Source: a virus. Taken from it: a stretch of DNA of 14,924 nt. A program made the translations under genes and the position numbers. The notes beneath the pieces were generated by a model. The model saw nothing but the letters and a program-made list of their open reading frames with translations. It had not been told where the DNA came from and made no database searches. Below, in pieces: positions 2,565 through 8,735 of the stretch; the first letter of the stretch is position 1; each line of letters begins with the position of its first letter. Location: UHGV virus genome UHGV-0149279, one strand, 5' to 3'.

Positions 2565-3067
2565 TGCGCGTCCCCCTTGCGAATCTGGGCGGCGATGTCT
2601 TCGAGTACACCATCAGCGAACGAGCGATCGAAATCGCCTTCCGGCGCATCATCCATAAACTCTGTGGAGGTCAGTATCATTCGTGCGATGTCCGCAGCGT
2701 TCTTCGCTGTGTCTTCGATAAACCCAGCCTCCCATGCAGCCAGCATTCGGTTGGCAACAAAGTGAGCGCCTTCCTTGTGGGCTTGCGCCCGCACTTCAGC
2801 CAGGAAAGCCTGGTACGCAGGAATCTGCAGCACAGCCAGAGCTCCGATAATCTTCTGTACTTCTGGATGGCATTGATCGTAATGAGCATCGGTGATGAAC
2901 ACCGCGTCATTGTGAATTGCTTCAATTGCACTCAACTCCGCAGCCAGCGCCGCGCACTTGGCTTCAACCACGTTAAGGAGAGTCGTAACTTCTGCCGGTG
3001 ACATGTGCTCACCACAATCGGCATTCATCCTGGCGCTTTTAATCAGATCTTCGTATTTATTGCTCAT
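2561..3067 (-). CDS. hypothetical phage protein (168 aa from ATG at 3067)
   Basis: Track ORF 2561..3124; preferred start MSNKYEDL at 3067 has GGGAGGG RBS and ATGA overlap with upstream stop. No recognised domain. Confidence 0.55.
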   Translation of the reverse strand: MSNKYEDLIKSARMNADCGEHMSPAEVTTLLNVVEAKCAALAAELSAIEAIHNDAVFITDAHYDQCHPEVQKIIGALAVLQIPAYQAFLAEVRAQAHKEGAHFVANRMLAAWEAGFIEDTAKNAADIARMILTSTEFMDDAPEGDFDRSFADGVLEDIAAQIRKGDAQ

Positions 3068-3408
3068 ACCCCTGCCCTCCCCCAAACCATCAATACTCGC
3101 TTCATCGCCGCGCTGTTGCGGCACTCCTGGCAGATCACGTTTGCCTCTGTACGCTGCACCAGCTTCGAATTTCCCTTCGGCATAGCCGGGATTGTTTCTG
3201 GTGCGTATTTCATGCCGTAATCGGTCAGCCGATAAAGCCGCTGTCCGTGCTTGCCTTCGAACTCGATCAGGCCGTCTGCCAGCAGCGTGCTTAACGGGCC
3301 GGAAATCTTTTTTGTGGTCATGCCGATCATGCTGGCAATACGAGCACTATTCAGCCCTGGGTTATTGCGCAGGGCCGCCAGCACCTGCTCACGGATTGTT
3401 ATGGTCAT
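3064..3408 (-). CDS. winged-helix DNA-binding protein (about 114 aa)
   Basis: Track ORF 3064..3456; preferred start MTITIREQVLAALRNNPGLNSARIASMIGMTTKKISGPLSTLLADGLIE (HTH-like) at 3408 overlaps DnaC-like stop (ATGA). C-terminal CQEC motif. Confidence 0.5.
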   Translation of the reverse strand: MTITIREQVLAALRNNPGLNSARIASMIGMTTKKISGPLSTLLADGLIEFEGKHGQRLYRLTDYGMKYAPETIPAMPKGNSKLVQRTEANVICQECRNSAAMKRVLMVWGRAGV

Positions 3409-4259
3409 GCTGCCCCCTTGGAACGGTAAGAATCCCAGGTGAATGACAGCGTGCACCCGCCGCCGTCGCTCATGCGGTCAATAACACGCTCACTCACGAA
3501 CGCTGCCAACTCTTCTTTGGTCTGGTTGCTGATCAGGATGGTCGGCTTCATCCGCTCGTACCGGGTGTTGATGATTTCGAACATGATCAGCTTCTCGGCC
3601 TCGCTGCCGAACTGGACGCCAACCTCGTCGATGATCAAAAGGTCCGGAGTGGTGAAGTGCGCAATCACGTCGTTCTCGCTGCGCGTCGCAGTTTTCGACC
3701 ACGTTGATTTGAACTCACGGGCAATCTTCAGCGCGGTGGTAAAAATTACCGGGCTCTGGTGTTTCTCGATGACATCACGGGCGATCGCCAGGGCAAGGTG
3801 GTTTTTACCGGTTCCCGGCTTGCCGCACATCACCAGACCACCTCCCTGCTTCAGCCGCTCGGGCCACTTAGCGGCATACGCCTGACAAACCCGCAGCGCA
3901 CGTTCTGACTCCTTGCCAACCGGCTGATAGTTTTCCAGCGTGCACGTCACAAAGCGCTCAGGGATTTCGAGCTGACGCAGCAGGCGATCGATGTTCTGCT
4001 GGCGAGTGCGGTCTTCCCAACGCTTTTTCTCGTCATACAGGAAGCTCAGCTCATCGCGAAGGCAGCCCGGACAACGAGTCGGCGGCGACGGCAGCTTGAT
4101 TAGGCTGCTGGTAAGCACGCGTTTACGCTGTTCGTATTCGCCGTGTTTCTCGCAAAGCACCGTTTCGAAGACGGTCTCGCAGTTAGGGAGTTGCTCTGGC
4201 GGCCTGCCGAGAACTTCCAGCATTTTTTCGATAGCGTCGATTTTTTCGAGCAGCTCCAT
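3405..4259 (-). CDS. DnaC-like helicase loader (IstB-like AAA+ ATPase), lambda P functional analogue
   Basis: Walker A GKPGTGKNHLA and Walker B LLIIDEVG; N-terminal Cys pairs; preferred start MELLEKID at 4259 with GAGGG RBS just after O stop (track start 4277). Confidence 0.85.
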   Translation of the reverse strand: MELLEKIDAIEKMLEVLGRPPEQLPNCETVFETVLCEKHGEYEQRKRVLTSSLIKLPSPPTRCPGCLRDELSFLYDEKKRWEDRTRQQNIDRLLRQLEIPERFVTCTLENYQPVGKESERALRVCQAYAAKWPERLKQGGGLVMCGKPGTGKNHLALAIARDVIEKHQSPVIFTTALKIAREFKSTWSKTATRSENDVIAHFTTPDLLIIDEVGVQFGSEAEKLIMFEIINTRYERMKPTILISNQTKEELAAFVSERVIDRMSDGGGCTLSFTWDSYRSKGAA

Positions 4260-4261
4260 AC

Positions 4262-5116
4262 TCAGTCCCTCGCCCATGACGGGATTTCAGTCTGGCCATA
4301 GTCCTTGCCAGCGAAGTTCTCGGATACGCGAGTCTGATTGCGGGCTGGCTGCTTGATGCCTTTCGGTTCAAACAATCCCTGCCAGCCGTTCGCAATGCTC
4401 TGGTTGATGATTTCTTCAGGCTGGTATCCGCTGCACTTGCAACGCTCAAGCAGGTTGATGGCCTGGGTTACCGTCTGCTGAGACTTAATCGGTTTCTTCA
4501 GGTCGCGACGATAATCGACCCATGACTTCCAGACTGAAACTGACAGCCATTCAGGAAGGTCAACACCAGCCGGATCGAACGAAGCCGGTTTGGGGGATTT
4601 AGGGGGTTTATTAATATTGTCTTTATTGTCTTTTGTATGTTTGTCTTTTGTGTTTACCTTATTTGGGTAAGTGTCGTTACCTGATTCGGGTAAACATTCC
4701 TTACCTGATTCAGGTAAATTTACCTCTTTCAGGTAACGTTTATTTTCATTACCTGTTTTTGGTAATTTCACCCATTCACTAACCGTTTTGTTAATGCCGA
4801 CAGAACGCCCGATTTGGGTAAATACTCCACGCTTCACTAACGAGCTTTTAGCAGCAGAGCATTTGTGCGGAAGAATGCCGGTGAGGGCAGATAACTGATC
4901 GTTACTAACCCAGTCAGCTTTTTTGTTGAAACCGTATGTTTTACGCATTACAGCCATGAAGACCAGCAACTGATGCTGAGACAATCCAGCCAGCATGACA
5001 GCCTCCAGAAGTTCATTGGCAATACGCGTATAGCCATCATCAAGATCTGCCACGCGCGGCTCCACGACCTGCAAATCAGGCCTGATTGGTGAGATATTGT
5101 TAATTGCTAAGTTCAT
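4262..5116 (-). CDS. O: replication initiation protein O
   Basis: N-terminus [20 protein letters not shown]...RKTYGFNK matches recalled lambda O ([19 protein letters not shown]...RKTYGWNK). Preferred ATG at 5116 with GGGGAGG RBS (track start 5200). Internal iterons, see repeat feature. Confidence 0.85.
4654..4765. repeat. replication origin iterons: five 17-bp repeats TTACC-N7-GGTAA, with adjacent AT-rich tract at about 4600-4653
   Basis: Copies at about 4654-4670, 4677-4693, 4701-4717, 4720-4736, 4749-4765 (TTACCTTATTTGGGTAA, TTACCTGATTCGGGTAA, TTACCTGATTCAGGTAA, TTACCTCTTTCAGGTAA, TTACCTGTTTTTGGTAA), inside the O coding sequence as in ori-lambda. Coordinates +/-1. Confidence 0.6.
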
Positions 5117-5294
5117 CAGCAGCCTCCCCGCCTTTCTTGAAGATGATTTCGACACAAAGCAGAATGCAGTTATCGCAGATAGCAACGCCTGGACCGGCAA
5201 CTATGGTTTTCACGTCGCTATCGATATTGCTTCTGTCGCAGAAAGAGCATTTATGAGTTGCGTGCTGATTTGCCTTTTCGTTTATTACTGGCAT
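5100..5294 (-). CDS. small ClpX-type C4 zinc-finger (ZBD-like) protein, about 64 aa
   Basis: [28 protein letters not shown] = C-x2-C-x21-C-x2-C with the internal GP, matching the ClpX N-terminal zinc-binding domain pattern (recalled CSFCGK...GP.VYICDEC). Preferred ATG at 5294 with GGGAG RBS (track start 5321 is GTG). 3' end overlaps O start. Confidence 0.55.
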
Positions 5295-5379
5295 ACTTAC
5301 TCCCGTTACTTGGCGTAACACAGTGTGATAAGGGCCTTTGAAGTGACCGCTTCAAGGGCTTTTTCTTTTCTGGTGCCTC

Positions 5380-5925
5380 TCACATGACCCCCAACATCGA
5401 AGTGACCATCGTCATCAGCGGGCCTACCTGCTCCGGCATGAGGCGGAACAGCGACGCTATACCCTCGCTTACCTCTTTCAGCTTCTGATGCTCTGGAGCG
5501 TCCAGCAGCACAGCCTGTTTAGCTTCGGCACACTCTTTCATCGCAGAGGCGATCAGAGACATCGTGTCGTTCTGCGGCGCCAGGCGGTTGCGGTACTCCA
5601 GCGGAAGGACCGACATGATTGCTGGCGCCAGCTGGCGAATGTTGTTGGCGGCGTATTCGGTGTCGCCATCAATCCAGCGAAACACTTTCTGCATCTGGCG
5701 GTGCGAGTCAGTCGGGATATCCAGACCGGTTCCGCCGGACGCCCGCCACTCTTCAACAATCAGCGCTGCGACAAATTCACGGCTGCGGCAGTCAGCTGCC
5801 CAGGCCCGAACAGCTGCGCGGATCCCATCGATGTTTAACGCCGTGGAATCAGGTTCCCGGCGATTCTGGTAAATCATCGCCGCTGGCGAAAATTTGTTAC
5901 CTTGTTGATACGCAAGTGAATGCAT
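5380..5925 (-). CDS. YdaT-like protein (Rac-type, occupies the cII position)
   Basis: Immediately downstream of the cro-like gene. Central segment VFRWIDGDTEYAANNIRQLAPAIMSVLPLEYRNRL resembles my recollection of Rac YdaT; similarity is from memory only. RBS GGGAAAG. Confidence 0.45.
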   Translation of the reverse strand: MHSLAYQQGNKFSPAAMIYQNRREPDSTALNIDGIRAAVRAWAADCRSREFVAALIVEEWRASGGTGLDIPTDSHRQMQKVFRWIDGDTEYAANNIRQLAPAIMSVLPLEYRNRLAPQNDTMSLIASAMKECAEAKQAVLLDAPEHQKLKEVSEGIASLFRLMPEQVGPLMTMVTSMLGVM

Positions 5926-5955: not shown

Positions 5956-6201
5956 TCAGGCGGCTGTCGATTCATTTTTAATTCGGTCAGGGTTTGCAGC
6001 CTGTAGTAGCCACTCTGCCGTAAACTGCCCTTTTGATGCGTCAGCCAAAAGCTGTGAATAGTTGGTTTTCTCTGTGTACTCAGTGCGAGGCAACGCCGCG
6101 TTCTTTACCCACTTGTGAATAGCAACATTCGACAGACCACATAGGCGTGCCGCTGCGGTTTGTCCGCCTACAGCTTCGATTGCAAATTGCATTGGGTTCA
6201 T
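5956..6201 (-). CDS. Cro-like HTH regulator (YdaS family)
   Basis: 81 aa, divergent from cI; AVGGQTAAARLCGLSNVAIHKW fits the YdaS/Cro-type HTH pattern (A..GGQ.A.ARL.G.S...V..W). Confidence 0.65.
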   Translation of the reverse strand: MNPMQFAIEAVGGQTAAARLCGLSNVAIHKWVKNAALPRTEYTEKTNYSQLLADASKGQFTAEWLLQAANPDRIKNESTAA

Positions 6202-6285: not shown

Positions 6286-7053
6286 ATGGTTAAAAAAGAC
6301 GATTTAAAAGAAGAATTCTCGAAGAGACTTCGCGCTGCATTGCTTGATGCTGGCGTGGGTGGGCGTGGGCAGGCTGGCAGGATCAGGGAAGCTATGAAGT
6401 CCCAAGGGATTGCTGTATCTGAGCCCGGGATCTGGAAGTGGCTTAACGCATCAGCAATACCAGACCAAACCAATATCCTTGCACTTAGCCGCTGGCTTGG
6501 GGTTCGCCCTGAGTGGCTGGAATACGGAAGGAATGATCCTGAACCTGAACTGCACAGGGTATCATCCATCCCGCCTGAATCTGAGTGGGGAACTGTCGAC
6601 GCTTGGGACAAAAATACCCCCCTACCTGACGATGAGGTGGAAGTACCGTTTCTGAAGGATATCGAGTTTGCGTGTGGTGATGGGCGTGTTCATAGCGAAG
6701 ATCATAACGGCTTTAAACTGAGGTTCTCCAAGGCAACGCTCAGAAGGGTGGGTGCAAATAGTGATGGTTCTGGAGTGCTTTGCTTTCCCGCTTCTGGTGA
6801 CAGCATGGAGCCCGTTATTCCTGACGGCGCAACGGTAGCAGTCGATACAGGCAACAAGCGGATTATTGACGGCGAACTCTATGCTATTAACCAGGGCGAT
6901 TTAAAGCGCATAAAGCAGCTTTATCGAAAGCCTGGTGGGAAGCTATTAATACGAAGCATCAATCGCGATTATGACGATGAAGAGGCTGATGAGGCAGATG
7001 TCGAGATAATCGGTTTTGTGTTCTGGTACTCGGTATTGCGATATCGCCGATAA
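6286..7053 (+). CDS. cI: CI-type prophage repressor (N-terminal HTH, C-terminal S24 LexA-like peptidase domain)
   Basis: C-terminal GDSMEP (Ser nucleophile) and downstream DLKRIKQLY (Lys) as in LexA/CI autocleaving repressors; N-terminal HTH-like region; divergent from cro-like gene. Confidence 0.85.
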   Translation: MVKKDDLKEEFSKRLRAALLDAGVGGRGQAGRIREAMKSQGIAVSEPGIWKWLNASAIPDQTNILALSRWLGVRPEWLEYGRNDPEPELHRVSSIPPESEWGTVDAWDKNTPLPDDEVEVPFLKDIEFACGDGRVHSEDHNGFKLRFSKATLRRVGANSDGSGVLCFPASGDSMEPVIPDGATVAVDTGNKRIIDGELYAINQGDLKRIKQLYRKPGGKLLIRSINRDYDDEEADEADVEIIGFVFWYSVLRYRR

Positions 7054-7171: not shown

Positions 7172-7319
7172 GGGCAAGGTGTTCTGGTCGGCGCATAGCT
7201 GGTGAAAAAATTATTTAATGCGGTGTATTGGCTGATTGTAACCCCATGTAACATCTTGCCGTCACCATTTCGGTGGTTAGATTTTTAATAAAAAAAACAA
7301 ATGTATAGCAAGGTTTTTT

Positions 7320-7799
7320 ATGGATAAAATTAATTACCCACCCCTGTTTGAGCCAGGGCTCCATGACATGGATGAAGCTGGATTAAAATCGTATTGTGTC
7401 GATTGCTTTCCTTCATCATCCAGGCGAGGCATGCTATACTGTAATTTTATACAGCTACTCGAATCTATTCGAGAATTATCTGCTCAATATGGCTGTTTTA
7501 CAGAAATATGGGTTGATGGTTCATACACCACGTCTAAACCAGAGCCTGATGATATTGATATTTTGTTGGTATGTGACTATAGCAATATAAACTCAATACC
7601 TGTCATGCTTCGGGGCCGCGTCGATAATTTGCTTGACCGAAACTACATCAAACAAAACTACAAAATTGATGTCCTACTACTCATGAAGAATTTAGATGAC
7701 CCTAACTATGATTATGAGTACTGGCGTAGCTACTGGCGCGGTTGGTTTGGTTTTGATCGCAGTGAAAACCCGAAAGGGTTAGTGAGGATTTTTTTATGA
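7320..7799 (+). CDS. minimal nucleotidyltransferase-fold (Pol-beta superfamily-like) protein, 159 aa
   Basis: FTEIWVDGSYTTSKPEPDDIDILLV fits hG[GS]-x9-D-x-D-h (compare generic MNT LFGSYARGEATEDSDIDLLV); third acidic residue in a hydrophobic strand at KIDVLLL. AT-rich (roughly 35-42% GC by eye versus above 50% in flanks). RBS AAGG. Family assignment is motif-based inference. Confidence 0.5.
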   Translation: MDKINYPPLFEPGLHDMDEAGLKSYCVDCFPSSSRRGMLYCNFIQLLESIRELSAQYGCFTEIWVDGSYTTSKPEPDDIDILLVCDYSNINSIPVMLRGRVDNLLDRNYIKQNYKIDVLLLMKNLDDPNYDYEYWRSYWRGWFGFDRSENPKGLVRIFL

Positions 7800-8728
7800 A
7801 TGATAAATCAATGTTTAAAAATTGCGATAAACGCATTGATTTCATTCAAAAAGAAGTCGATGCAATGAAGCAAAACAAAACCAGGTCCTTTGCTGACATG
7901 CTTCTTTATCGCTCCATGGATTCTCATCTGAGCGATTTGAAGGCCGAAAAATTAAAGCAAGATAGTCGGCACCCACTTATCGATTTTTTTGAGCTGCGGC
8001 TGAAAGGCTCTGAGGTTGACTTTGGCTCTATTCCTTTAGAGCTGCTTGGGGCTATTTCAACAAATCTTGCAGCGCTAATACAAAGAGCAACACACAAAAT
8101 TGCCTCAGGCAAGGACTCAAAAAAAGTTCCCTACGACGTGAAAAGCTCCTTAAACCTCAGGCTGGCTGATTTATCCCCTGGGTCTACAAAATTGGGCGTC
8201 ACCTTCTCTACAGGAATAGCAGAATTAGTAGAAACAGTACCCAGCAAGGCTGTAAAAGGCATATTCGATTTGTTGTTAAGCGATGACGACAACAACTTCA
8301 TGAATCACGTCGCTGAAATTGGATACAATTCCACTGTAAGCCTTAAGAGAATCGTAGAGGAATGCGATAAACACAACTTAACATTTGATGCAAGTTGGAC
8401 CGGTCCATTTAGTAATGGCACCAAGGTGGCAACTATTGACTCCAATAAAATTAAGTACTTGGTGAGTAGACTTACATCAACCATTTCATCCCCTCCCATT
8501 ACTGAAACGGTTACAGGCGAACTGGTCGTTCTATCCAAATATGGGAAGCTGGAGCTTGATGTTGGTGGTGAACATTTAAAGGCTTCCTATCCGATTGAAA
8601 TGCTAGATTTAATACAAAAAAAACACAAGGTCGGACAGATTGTTTCTCTTTTAGTGGAGACTACTGAGATTCACAATGATCGCATAGGTCTGTACCGTAA
8701 AAACCATCTTGTTAAATCGGTTCTTTAA
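7796..8728 (+). CDS. hypothetical protein, 310 aa, translationally coupled to the upstream NTase-like gene
   Basis: ATGA overlap with upstream stop; AT-rich; no motif I can assign (one R-x4-H match, RSMDSH, near the N-terminus is not sufficient to call HEPN). Confidence 0.6.
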   Translation: MNDKSMFKNCDKRIDFIQKEVDAMKQNKTRSFADMLLYRSMDSHLSDLKAEKLKQDSRHPLIDFFELRLKGSEVDFGSIPLELLGAISTNLAALIQRATHKIASGKDSKKVPYDVKSSLNLRLADLSPGSTKLGVTFSTGIAELVETVPSKAVKGIFDLLLSDDDNNFMNHVAEIGYNSTVSLKRIVEECDKHNLTFDASWTGPFSNGTKVATIDSNKIKYLVSRLTSTISSPPITETVTGELVVLSKYGKLELDVGGEHLKASYPIEMLDLIQKKHKVGQIVSLLVETTEIHNDRIGLYRKNHLVKSVL

Positions 8729-8735
8729 TATCTCA

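Follow-up and report, generated by a model that had tools for sequence, protein, structure and literature searches.

A probable ori-lambda-type replication origin with five TTACC-N7-GGTAA iterons inside the O gene of UHGV-0149279

The virus genome UHGV-0149279 carries a row of short palindromes inside a phage gene, and the question raised by this locus is whether they constitute a replication origin or have another meaning, as a peptide linker, as operators or as the remnant of a decayed prophage. The window, that is the whole stretch of DNA analysed, comprises 14,924 nt. With a probability of about 0.9, we consider from its sequence features that positions 4607-4765 are an ori-lambda-type origin of a lambdoid Enterobacteriaceae prophage, embedded in O.

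Five exact 17-mers of the form TTACC-N7-GGTAA span positions 4654-4765, with a spacing of 29-19-24-23 in the O direction. No match was found elsewhere in the 14.9-kb window, even at one mismatch. The first-pass annotation had described five 17-bp inverted-repeat iterons, and this was confirmed. In dinucleotide-preserving shuffles (n = 200), 0.28 iterons were expected by chance and five were reached in 0/200. A search of open-access papers for the iteron sequence in either orientation returned only irrelevant primer matches, and an exact 40-mer of iterons 1-2 had no match in species-representative genomes. The iterons, numbered in the O direction, are the following:

4749-4765, iteron 1, O-sense TTACCAAAAACAGGTAA, encoding LPKTG
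4720-4736, iteron 2, TTACCTGAAAGAGGTAA, read in the other frame and encoding YLKEV
4701-4717, iteron 3, TTACCTGAATCAGGTAA, encoding LPESG
4677-4693, iteron 4, TTACCCGAATCAGGTAA, encoding LPESG
4654-4670, iteron 5, TTACCCAAATAAGGTAA, encoding YPNKV and adjoining the AT-rich tract

All five are located inside the minus-strand ORF 4262-5116, where they encode amino acids 118-155. The proposal that this ORF is an O gene was upheld by its match to Phage_rep_O (PF04492; E 1.4e-33, aa 22-116), and the PHROG family 'replication initiation O-like' was also recovered (E 6.5e-80). Homologues of this gene are annotated at 855 nt. Its N-terminal domain is 39-46% identical to that of lambda O and 65% identical to that of P22 gp18, and no alignment was possible between its C-terminal half and the lambda O C-terminus. 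Among species-representative genomes, the closest O proteins are those of Pseudocitrobacter vendiensis (96%), Enterobacter bugandensis (95%) and E. asburiae (93%). A PDB sequence search with O gave no relative, and neither the fold nor a disordered linker was confirmable from the AlphaFold2 single-sequence model (mean pLDDT 43). The parts of the gene are:

4262-5116, minus strand, O-like replication initiator gene, ATG at 5116, 284 aa
4766-5116, minus strand, sequence encoding the N-terminal domain of O (aa 1-117), predicted to bind the iterons; the Pfam match extends to aa 115-116
4262-4591, minus strand, sequence encoding the C-terminal half of O, a presumed loader-recruiting domain usually co-occurring with a DnaC-like loader

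The peptides encoded by the iterons run in the order LPKTG..YLKEV..LPESG..LPESG..YPNKV and start directly after the end of the Pfam domain. The LPESG peptide repeats that had been assigned to the O linker were therefore recovered, LPESG occurring twice in this segment.

An AT-rich segment had also been announced after the iterons in the O direction. It was found at 4607-4653, beginning directly after the last iteron, with an A+T content of 77% distributed very unequally on the O-sense strand (A 65%, T 12%). The tract holds a 15-nt tandem ACAAAAGACAA direct repeat. Only three 50-bp stretches of the window are less stable than it, and of the ten least stable it is the only one that falls within O. 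The origin had been placed at 4600-4765. The part from 4607 to 4765 stood, and positions 4600-4606 had to be removed because they belong to a G/C block at 4592-4606 and not to the AT tract.

4607-4653 (47 bp), AT-rich, strand-asymmetric presumed DNA-unwinding element, O-sense ACACAAAAGACAAACATACAAAAGACAATAAAGACAATATTAATAAA, so designated on its low stability and its shared start
4592-4606, G/C-rich block bounding the AT tract, GGGGGATTTAGGGGG, O-sense CCCCCTAAATCCCCC, read directly from the sequence

The tract starts with the 12-mer ACACAAAAGACA, followed 15-16 nt on by ACAAAAGA. The same start is present in the annotated ori of lambda and in the O genes of P22, HK97, Yersinia, Erwinia, Serratia and Huaxiibacter, the tract being common to five iteron classes. 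Homology of the AT tract to the lambda unwinding element, and not just analogy, is supported by this comparison of sequences. CCCC..CCCC-like blocks were also seen 3' of the AT tract in P22, HK97, the Yersinia and Erwinia phages and loci L217-L221.

The surroundings of O are a lambdoid immunity and replication region, with the following genes and signals:

3064-3456, minus strand, Ren-like wHTH gene
3405-4277, minus strand, DnaC/IstB-like AAA+ helicase-loader gene that shares 16 nt with the end of O
5330-5363, plus strand, antisense hairpin and T-run resembling an intrinsic terminator, at the oop terminator position
5380-5925, minus strand, YdaT-like gene at the cII position
5956-6201, minus strand, Cro/YdaS-like gene
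6286-7053, plus strand, S24 CI-type repressor gene, divergent from the early operon

The order on the minus strand is cro-like, cII-like, a small ORF at 5100-5294, O, loader and Ren-like, and with the divergent CI gene the order around O is that expected for a lambdoid early operon. The product of the loader gene matched Pfam IstB_IS21 (1.5e-16) and Bac_DnaA (3e-9) as well as PHROG 'DnaC-like helicase loader' (3e-83), so that the DnaC-like gene mentioned in the first-pass annotation is indeed directly downstream of O. Genes for RecT, a YqaJ exonuclease and an integrase are found further along the window. The P22 record has the oop promoter and terminator annotated in the equivalent c1-orf48 interval. 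A simple consensus scan of the minus strand detected no sigma-70-like promoter ahead of the cro-like gene, and Rfam gave no match over the whole window, leaving the region without a known RNA explanation. The Rac prophage and its oriJ were considered as relatives, as the cro-like and cII-like neighbours match the YdaS and YdaT families, but were discarded since Rac ydaU is a DUF1376 protein, not Phage_rep_O, and is devoid of such repeats.

The repeats could have been maintained merely as a peptide linker of the LPxxG type, selected as protein and without any role as DNA sites. They are in frame and occupy a K/N/P/E/S-rich segment between two domains, and their copy number shifts in frame as well. 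Five iterons at 29-19-24-23 are present in 97/115 unique origin segments and the rest carry three to nine; relative to five copies, the variants with 7 and 9 differ in length by 48 and 96 nt, therefore copy-number variants remain in frame. However, two reading frames are used for the same 17-mer, with L-P-x-x-G as the product of one and Y-x-x-x-V of the other, and as a consequence an explanation at the peptide level fails. Conservation was measured on 58 unique canonical origins taken from protein-selected loci only, for avoiding selection bias. In these 58 diverged relatives, 46/50 half-site columns are invariant. Third-codon-position conservation reaches 0.990 in the half-sites, against 0.749 in the flanking N-domain coding sequence and 0.642 in the C-terminal coding sequence (Mann-Whitney p = 1.9e-6), and the result was the same in a set including loci picked for perfect iterons. 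Both the conserved third positions and the reading in two frames indicate that the constraint acts on the DNA itself. In addition, perfect dyad symmetry would be meaningless for a peptide, and the position of the repeats is homologous to that of the experimentally defined lambda iterons. All these data make the peptide-linker explanation extremely improbable and favour the origin.

If the palindromes are an origin recognized by O, they should travel with its N-terminal domain. Viral contigs were scanned for two neighbouring iterons with the DNA pattern as the only criterion, which gave at least 120 loci. Among the matches listed, 113/120 iteron loci encode the O N-domain, and most of the others end at the locus edge. 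Co-occurrence was then counted in 59 loci that contain the iterons and have 2.5 kb or more of sequence on either side, a protein being scored as present at 60% identity or more. The O N-domain was present in 59 of them, the loader in 20, the O C-terminus in 7, the Ren-like protein in 4, CI in 3, and Cro and the cII-like protein in 1 each.

These counts also bear on the possibility that the palindromes are operators of the Ren-like wHTH, of CI or of the Cro/cII-like proteins, with a role in transcription and not in replication. Palindromes of 17 bp are typical of dimeric repressor sites, and genes for several HTH proteins lie no more than 2 kb away. Nevertheless, close homologues of CI, Cro, the cII-like and the Ren-like proteins occur in 1-4 of the 59 loci, versus 59/59 for the O N-domain. 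Moreover, the immunity region of the window is free of TTACC-N7-GGTAA sites, and a Huaxiibacter locus (L218) encodes a Ren-like protein with 78% identity but has no TTACC sites. A natural control is the Enterobacter sichuanensis locus L219, which with respect to UHGV-0149279 keeps CI (97%), Cro (94%), the loader (97%) and the Ren-like protein (76%), yet its repeats differ and its O differs exactly at aa 78-119. We therefore give hardly any credit to the operator explanation.

In L219, residues 19-77 of O are identical to those of UHGV-0149279 at 59/59 positions, whereas residues 78-119 are identical at only 20/42. Its repeats are TTTCAACCGTCAGGGAA and two similar copies, in which the 24/23 spacing was apparently kept, as judged by reading the sequence. 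This natural chimera maps the putative specificity difference to O aa 78-119. A domain insertion was also observed in L219. More generally, repeats and N-domain vary together among lambdoid phages. The P22 gp18 class, with an N-domain 65% identical, has TTACC/GGTAA-like half-sites and a spacer of 5-6 nt; HK97 and the Yersinia and Erwinia phages (N-domain 43-57%) have TTAGC-N7-GCTAA; L217, L218, L220 and L221 have TGTCACC..GGTGACA; lambda and BP-4795 have TCCCTC..GAGGGA, and phi80 has GGGAA..TTCCC. The HTH-like segment of the N-domain varies between iteron classes too. The first-pass annotation had called the iteron sequence distinct, and had deduced from this a distinct replication specificity; in this comparison it proved to differ from those of lambda, phi80, P22 and HK97. 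An own iteron sequence covarying with the O N-domain fits a separate replication specificity.

With Escherichia phage Lambda_4C10 (L002), UHGV-0149279 shares 73% nucleotide identity over the N-domain and 86% over the iterons, and identity is at the background level (53%) in the C-terminal half. With L218, identity is 57% for the N-domain and 50% for the iterons, and it reaches 92% for the AT tract and 89% for the C-terminal half. Both patterns place the joint at the border between iterons and AT tract, at a motif common to all classes. The module formed by N-domain and iterons is joined to a lambda-type C-terminus and lambda P in 108 of the fetched loci, and to a C-terminus of the UHGV-0149279 type and a DnaC-like loader in 52. 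This second C-terminus is usually accompanied by such a loader. However, in L157, L162 and L053 a similar C-terminal segment (70% identity) is paired with a distant P-like loader, so the coupling of C-terminus and loader is not absolute. Locus L048, which seemed to combine a lambda C-terminus with a DnaC-like loader, was rejected as an artefact of a weak AAA match elsewhere in the locus. From these chimeras, iterons and N-domain would be one exchangeable specificity module, and the AT tract, the O C-terminal half and the loader a second one, with the conserved ACACAAAAGACA as the probable recombination joint between them. Natural chimeras would in this way map specificity, residues 78-119 of the N-domain covarying with the iterons, and ACACAAAAGACA would mark the point at which initiator specificity and loader recruitment are exchanged. 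Phage 82, whose O and lambda O can be combined into functional hybrids, may also belong to the TTACC-N7-GGTAA class. The commonest form of the class, with lambda-type C-terminus and lambda P, matches what lambda-82 hybrids would require, which is circumstantial evidence. A literature search in open-access text gave nothing usable on the phage 82 origin or on five-iteron origins.

The class is widely distributed. A protein scan with the N-domain gave at least 600 viral contigs, and the 112-bp iteron block was detected in 2415/5426 complete E. coli genomes (about 44%), in 2337 of them with a coverage of at least 80%. In E. coli genomes with the block it occurs at one to three places each, and the gene is always called just 'replication protein'. 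The class includes the Klebsiella phages GZ7, ST11-VIM1phi8.2 and RCIP0034, the Escherichia phages Lambda_4C10, 4A7, Perceval, 1W/3W and the PhiR series, and a prophage of E. coli AW1.7. All have TTACC-N7-GGTAA iterons at the same spacing, with about 80-95% nucleotide identity across N-domain and iterons. GZ7, ST11-VIM1phi8.2 and AW1.7 also have the C-terminus and the DnaC-like loader of UHGV-0149279, whereas the Escherichia phages carry the module joined to an O C-terminus of the lambda type and to lambda P. None of the same-class records inspected contains an iteron or origin annotation. TTACC-N7-GGTAA is thus among the commonest O/ori types of enterobacterial prophages and, now that this common class is defined by its canonical spacing of 29-19-24-23, origins could be annotated in thousands of prophages. 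A lambdoid-type origin was also observed in an Ignavibacteriales MAG.

The block is found one to three times in the prophages of many E. coli genomes, which raises the possibility that the locus is a non-functional relic of a cryptic prophage, or that it serves mainly as a determinant of O titration, incompatibility or exclusion against superinfecting phages of the same type. An oop-like terminator lies upstream, and ori-lambda iterons cloned together with oop are inhibitory to rep-lambda phages and not to repP22 phages (PMC3349717). The prophage may be defective. Nonetheless, its replication ORFs are all intact and its iterons perfect, and near-identical modules are found in the isolated plaque-forming phages Klebsiella GZ7 and Escherichia 4A7, Perceval and 4C10. 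As these modules must provide origins in plaque-forming phages, a relic or exclusion role would be secondary to the origin function; titration would come on top of a working origin and would not replace it. For these reasons we regard relic or exclusion as the main role as improbable, although somewhat less so than the peptide and operator explanations. Prophages of the same class that share a cell, of which an E. coli genome may contain up to three, could titrate or cross-activate one another's initiator, and this would bear on induction and on the exclusion phenotypes known from ori-lambda plasmids.

On the observed architecture, homology, constraint at the DNA level and co-inheritance, we infer the following course of O binding, unwinding and helicase loading at the origin. 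After derepression, the rightward-type early operon, on the minus strand in the observed gene order, would be transcribed through the origin. Dimers of the O N-domain would then bind the five palindromes and form an O-some, as suggested by homology, by DNA-level conservation and by strict co-inheritance. By analogy with lambda biology, the O-some would destabilise the adjacent A-rich tract of 47 bp. Finally, the C-terminal half of O would recruit the DnaC-like loader and host DnaB onto the opened DNA, which is consistent with the co-occurrence of both genes.

The small ORF preceding O was also considered.

5100-5294, minus strand, 64-aa ClpX zinc-finger-like ORF, its end overlapping the O start codon

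This ORF matched Pfam zf-C4_ClpX (9.8e-12) and the ClpX zinc-binding domain in PDB (1ovx/2ds5, E about 1e-7). It is present in 15/198 related loci, with an identical overlap with O every time. Lambda O is a classical ClpXP substrate. The product, as a putative mimic of the ClpX N-terminal zinc-binding domain, may be a decoy against degradation of O by ClpXP and, if this is true, it would alter the lifetime of the O-some and the firing frequency of the TTACC-type origin, adding a layer of control in this subtype. The double proposal that such a mimic shields O from ClpXP and that the TTACC-N7-GGTAA class is a specificity group never characterised experimentally seems to us rather unlikely. The ClpX-like ORF, the domain insertion of L219 and the origin in the Ignavibacteriales MAG may be worth more attention than the origin itself.

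Among known systems, iteron plasmid origins (pSC101, F, R6K and P1, with Rep_3 initiators) also have initiator-binding repeats beside an AT-rich unwinding element, and the logic of array plus AT-rich element is established for them (review, PMC5043065). However, plasmid iterons are direct, asymmetric 19-22-mers recognized by monomers; they are located outside the rep gene and in most cases depend on DnaA boxes. The sites described here are palindromes inside the initiator gene, and for this reason membership of the iteron-type plasmid origins was rejected.

The origin in P22 gene 18, annotated as rep_origin 32840-32984, occupies the equivalent place in the gene. Its N-domain is the nearest among the classical ones, and its half-sites, AT tract (near-same) and CCCCC block all resemble those of UHGV-0149279. 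Nevertheless, P22 has four imperfect copies with 5-6 nt spacers, and a DnaB-type helicase (gene 12) as partner. Assignment to the repP22 class was thus discarded, the spacer being 7 nt in 5/5 copies, the N-domain only 65% identical and the partner a loader and not a DnaB-like helicase. The HK97-type origins (HK97 O, Yersinia vB_YenM_06.16-1 and Erwinia vB_EhrS_49) share the 5-N7-5 geometry, the AT tract and the G/C block. They differ in their TTAGC/GCTAA half-site, in the N-domain, whose HTH-like segment reads HHTHVC versus LPHKCS, and in having a DnaB-like helicase as partner. The HK97 class was rejected as well since, with the same geometry, the half-site differs at 2/5 positions.

The closest design is that of ori-lambda, which the first-pass annotation had seen mirrored here, and the position in O, the number of repeats, their dyads, the spacing and the AT tract are all lambda-like. 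In both cases the site lies within O, between its N- and C-terminal halves, and the N-domains are homologous. The lambda record has four iterons starting at 39034, 39054, 39078 and 39101; dyad repeats of about 17-18 bp are thus spaced 20-24-23 in lambda and 19-24-23 here, with one extra upstream copy, and an A-rich tract with the same ACACAAAAGACA...ACAAAAGA directly follows the last repeat. Copy number is five here, versus four in lambda or six in the Stx phages 933W, P27 and BP-4795. In phage P27, synonymous recoding of the half-sites abolished origin function while O in trans was still active, and two iterons together with the AT region are reported to be the smallest substrate that can be unwound (PMC7466680). 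The differences from lambda are found in the iterons (TCCCTC-N5/6-GAGGGA there), in the unrelated C-terminal half of O, in the partner, which is lambda P there and a DnaC-like AAA+ loader here, and to the right of the AT tract, where lambda has an EcoRI-containing palindrome and UHGV-0149279 the CCCCCTAAATCCCCC block. Membership of the rep-lambda class was rejected because half-sites and spacer differ and the N-domain is only 39-46% identical. As such, the origin adds little to what is known: it is the textbook lambda design, in a further very common and unannotated specificity class.

The number of iterons within O, the predicted replication initiator gene (window 4262-5116, minus strand), differed among related loci. 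A Kluyvera sichuanensis prophage (L216) carries nine TTACC-N7-GGTAA iterons within its O gene (3316-3523 in that locus), and this array arose by threefold in-frame tandem repetition of a 48-nt unit of two iterons. The iteron block of the window itself (five palindromes, 4654-4765) was found in up to three copies per genome among complete genomes of E. coli, O157:H7 strain Z903 having it at two places, so that several prophages of one presumed replication specificity share a cell.

A further iteron class, TGTCACC-N5/6-GGTGACA, was recognized in prophages of Enterobacter, Huaxiibacter, Serratia and Entomohabitans (L217, L218, L220 and L221), with 5-6 copies at about position 3300-3480 of each locus. 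In L217 and L218 these iterons are joined to a near-identical copy of the AT tract and of the O C-terminus of the window. In three other loci (L157, L162 and L053) the N-domain of O and the iterons are the same as those of the window, and the C-terminal segment of O is 70% identical to that of the window across its first 86 aa. The next protein after O in these three loci, which replaces the DnaC-like helicase loader, is just 35% identical to P of lambda. Specificity for the loader may reside at the very C-terminal end of O.

In the O gene of an Enterobacter sichuanensis prophage (L219, 3300-3720), the usual place of the first two iterons is occupied by an inserted segment, roughly 100 aa long (GYIYVF...VKIGFT...), which we take to be reminiscent of T5orf172/GIY-YIG-like domains. 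After it come three altered repeats of the TTTCAACCGTCAGGGAA type, with a spacing that by eye was apparently 24/23, and then a normal AT tract. Compared with O of the window, residues 19-77 are identical whereas residues 78-119 are different. The O-like gene of an Ignavibacteriales MAG (L222, 3300-3420) encodes an N-domain with 41% identity. It has three or more copies of the repeat GTTACC-AAAAAT-GGTAA, after which comes ACAAAAGACAATATTTCAAAAGACAA. These elements make up a predicted lambdoid-type origin, conserved AT motif included, and the assignment of the MAG apparently places it outside Proteobacteria.

Four further features were identified in the window.

Features around O and beyond the CI gene
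5100-5294, minus strand: ClpX zinc-finger-like ORF of 64 aa (Pfam ClpX C4 zinc finger)
5330-5363, plus strand: intrinsic-terminator-like hairpin of 15 pairs with T-run
7320-7799, plus strand: DUF6932 gene
7796-8728, plus strand: ORF of 310 aa overlapping the DUF6932 gene

The last codons of the 64-aa ORF, which is preceded by a good RBS (GGGAG), overlap the start of O. Its zinc finger was matched in Pfam with an E value of 9.8e-12 and, in PDB, the ClpX zinc-binding domain (1ovx/2ds5) with an E value of about 1e-7. The ORF was present in 15 of the 198 related O loci, always with identical strand and overlap with O, and a literature search turned up nothing on a phage protein of this kind. Since lambda O is a known substrate degraded by ClpXP, the product may by analogy be a decoy or adaptor acting on initiator turnover.

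Just past the CI gene, a position at which exclusion or defence cargo is frequent in lambdoid phages, lie the DUF6932 gene and the 310-aa ORF, the latter without Pfam match. This region (7280-8730) is the AT-richest part of the window, with 85% A+T at 7281-7320.

Finally, the hairpin, for which no Rfam match was obtained, is antisense to the early operon and lies between the stop codon of the cII-like gene and the zinc-finger ORF, the location that the oop RNA terminator has in lambda and P22.
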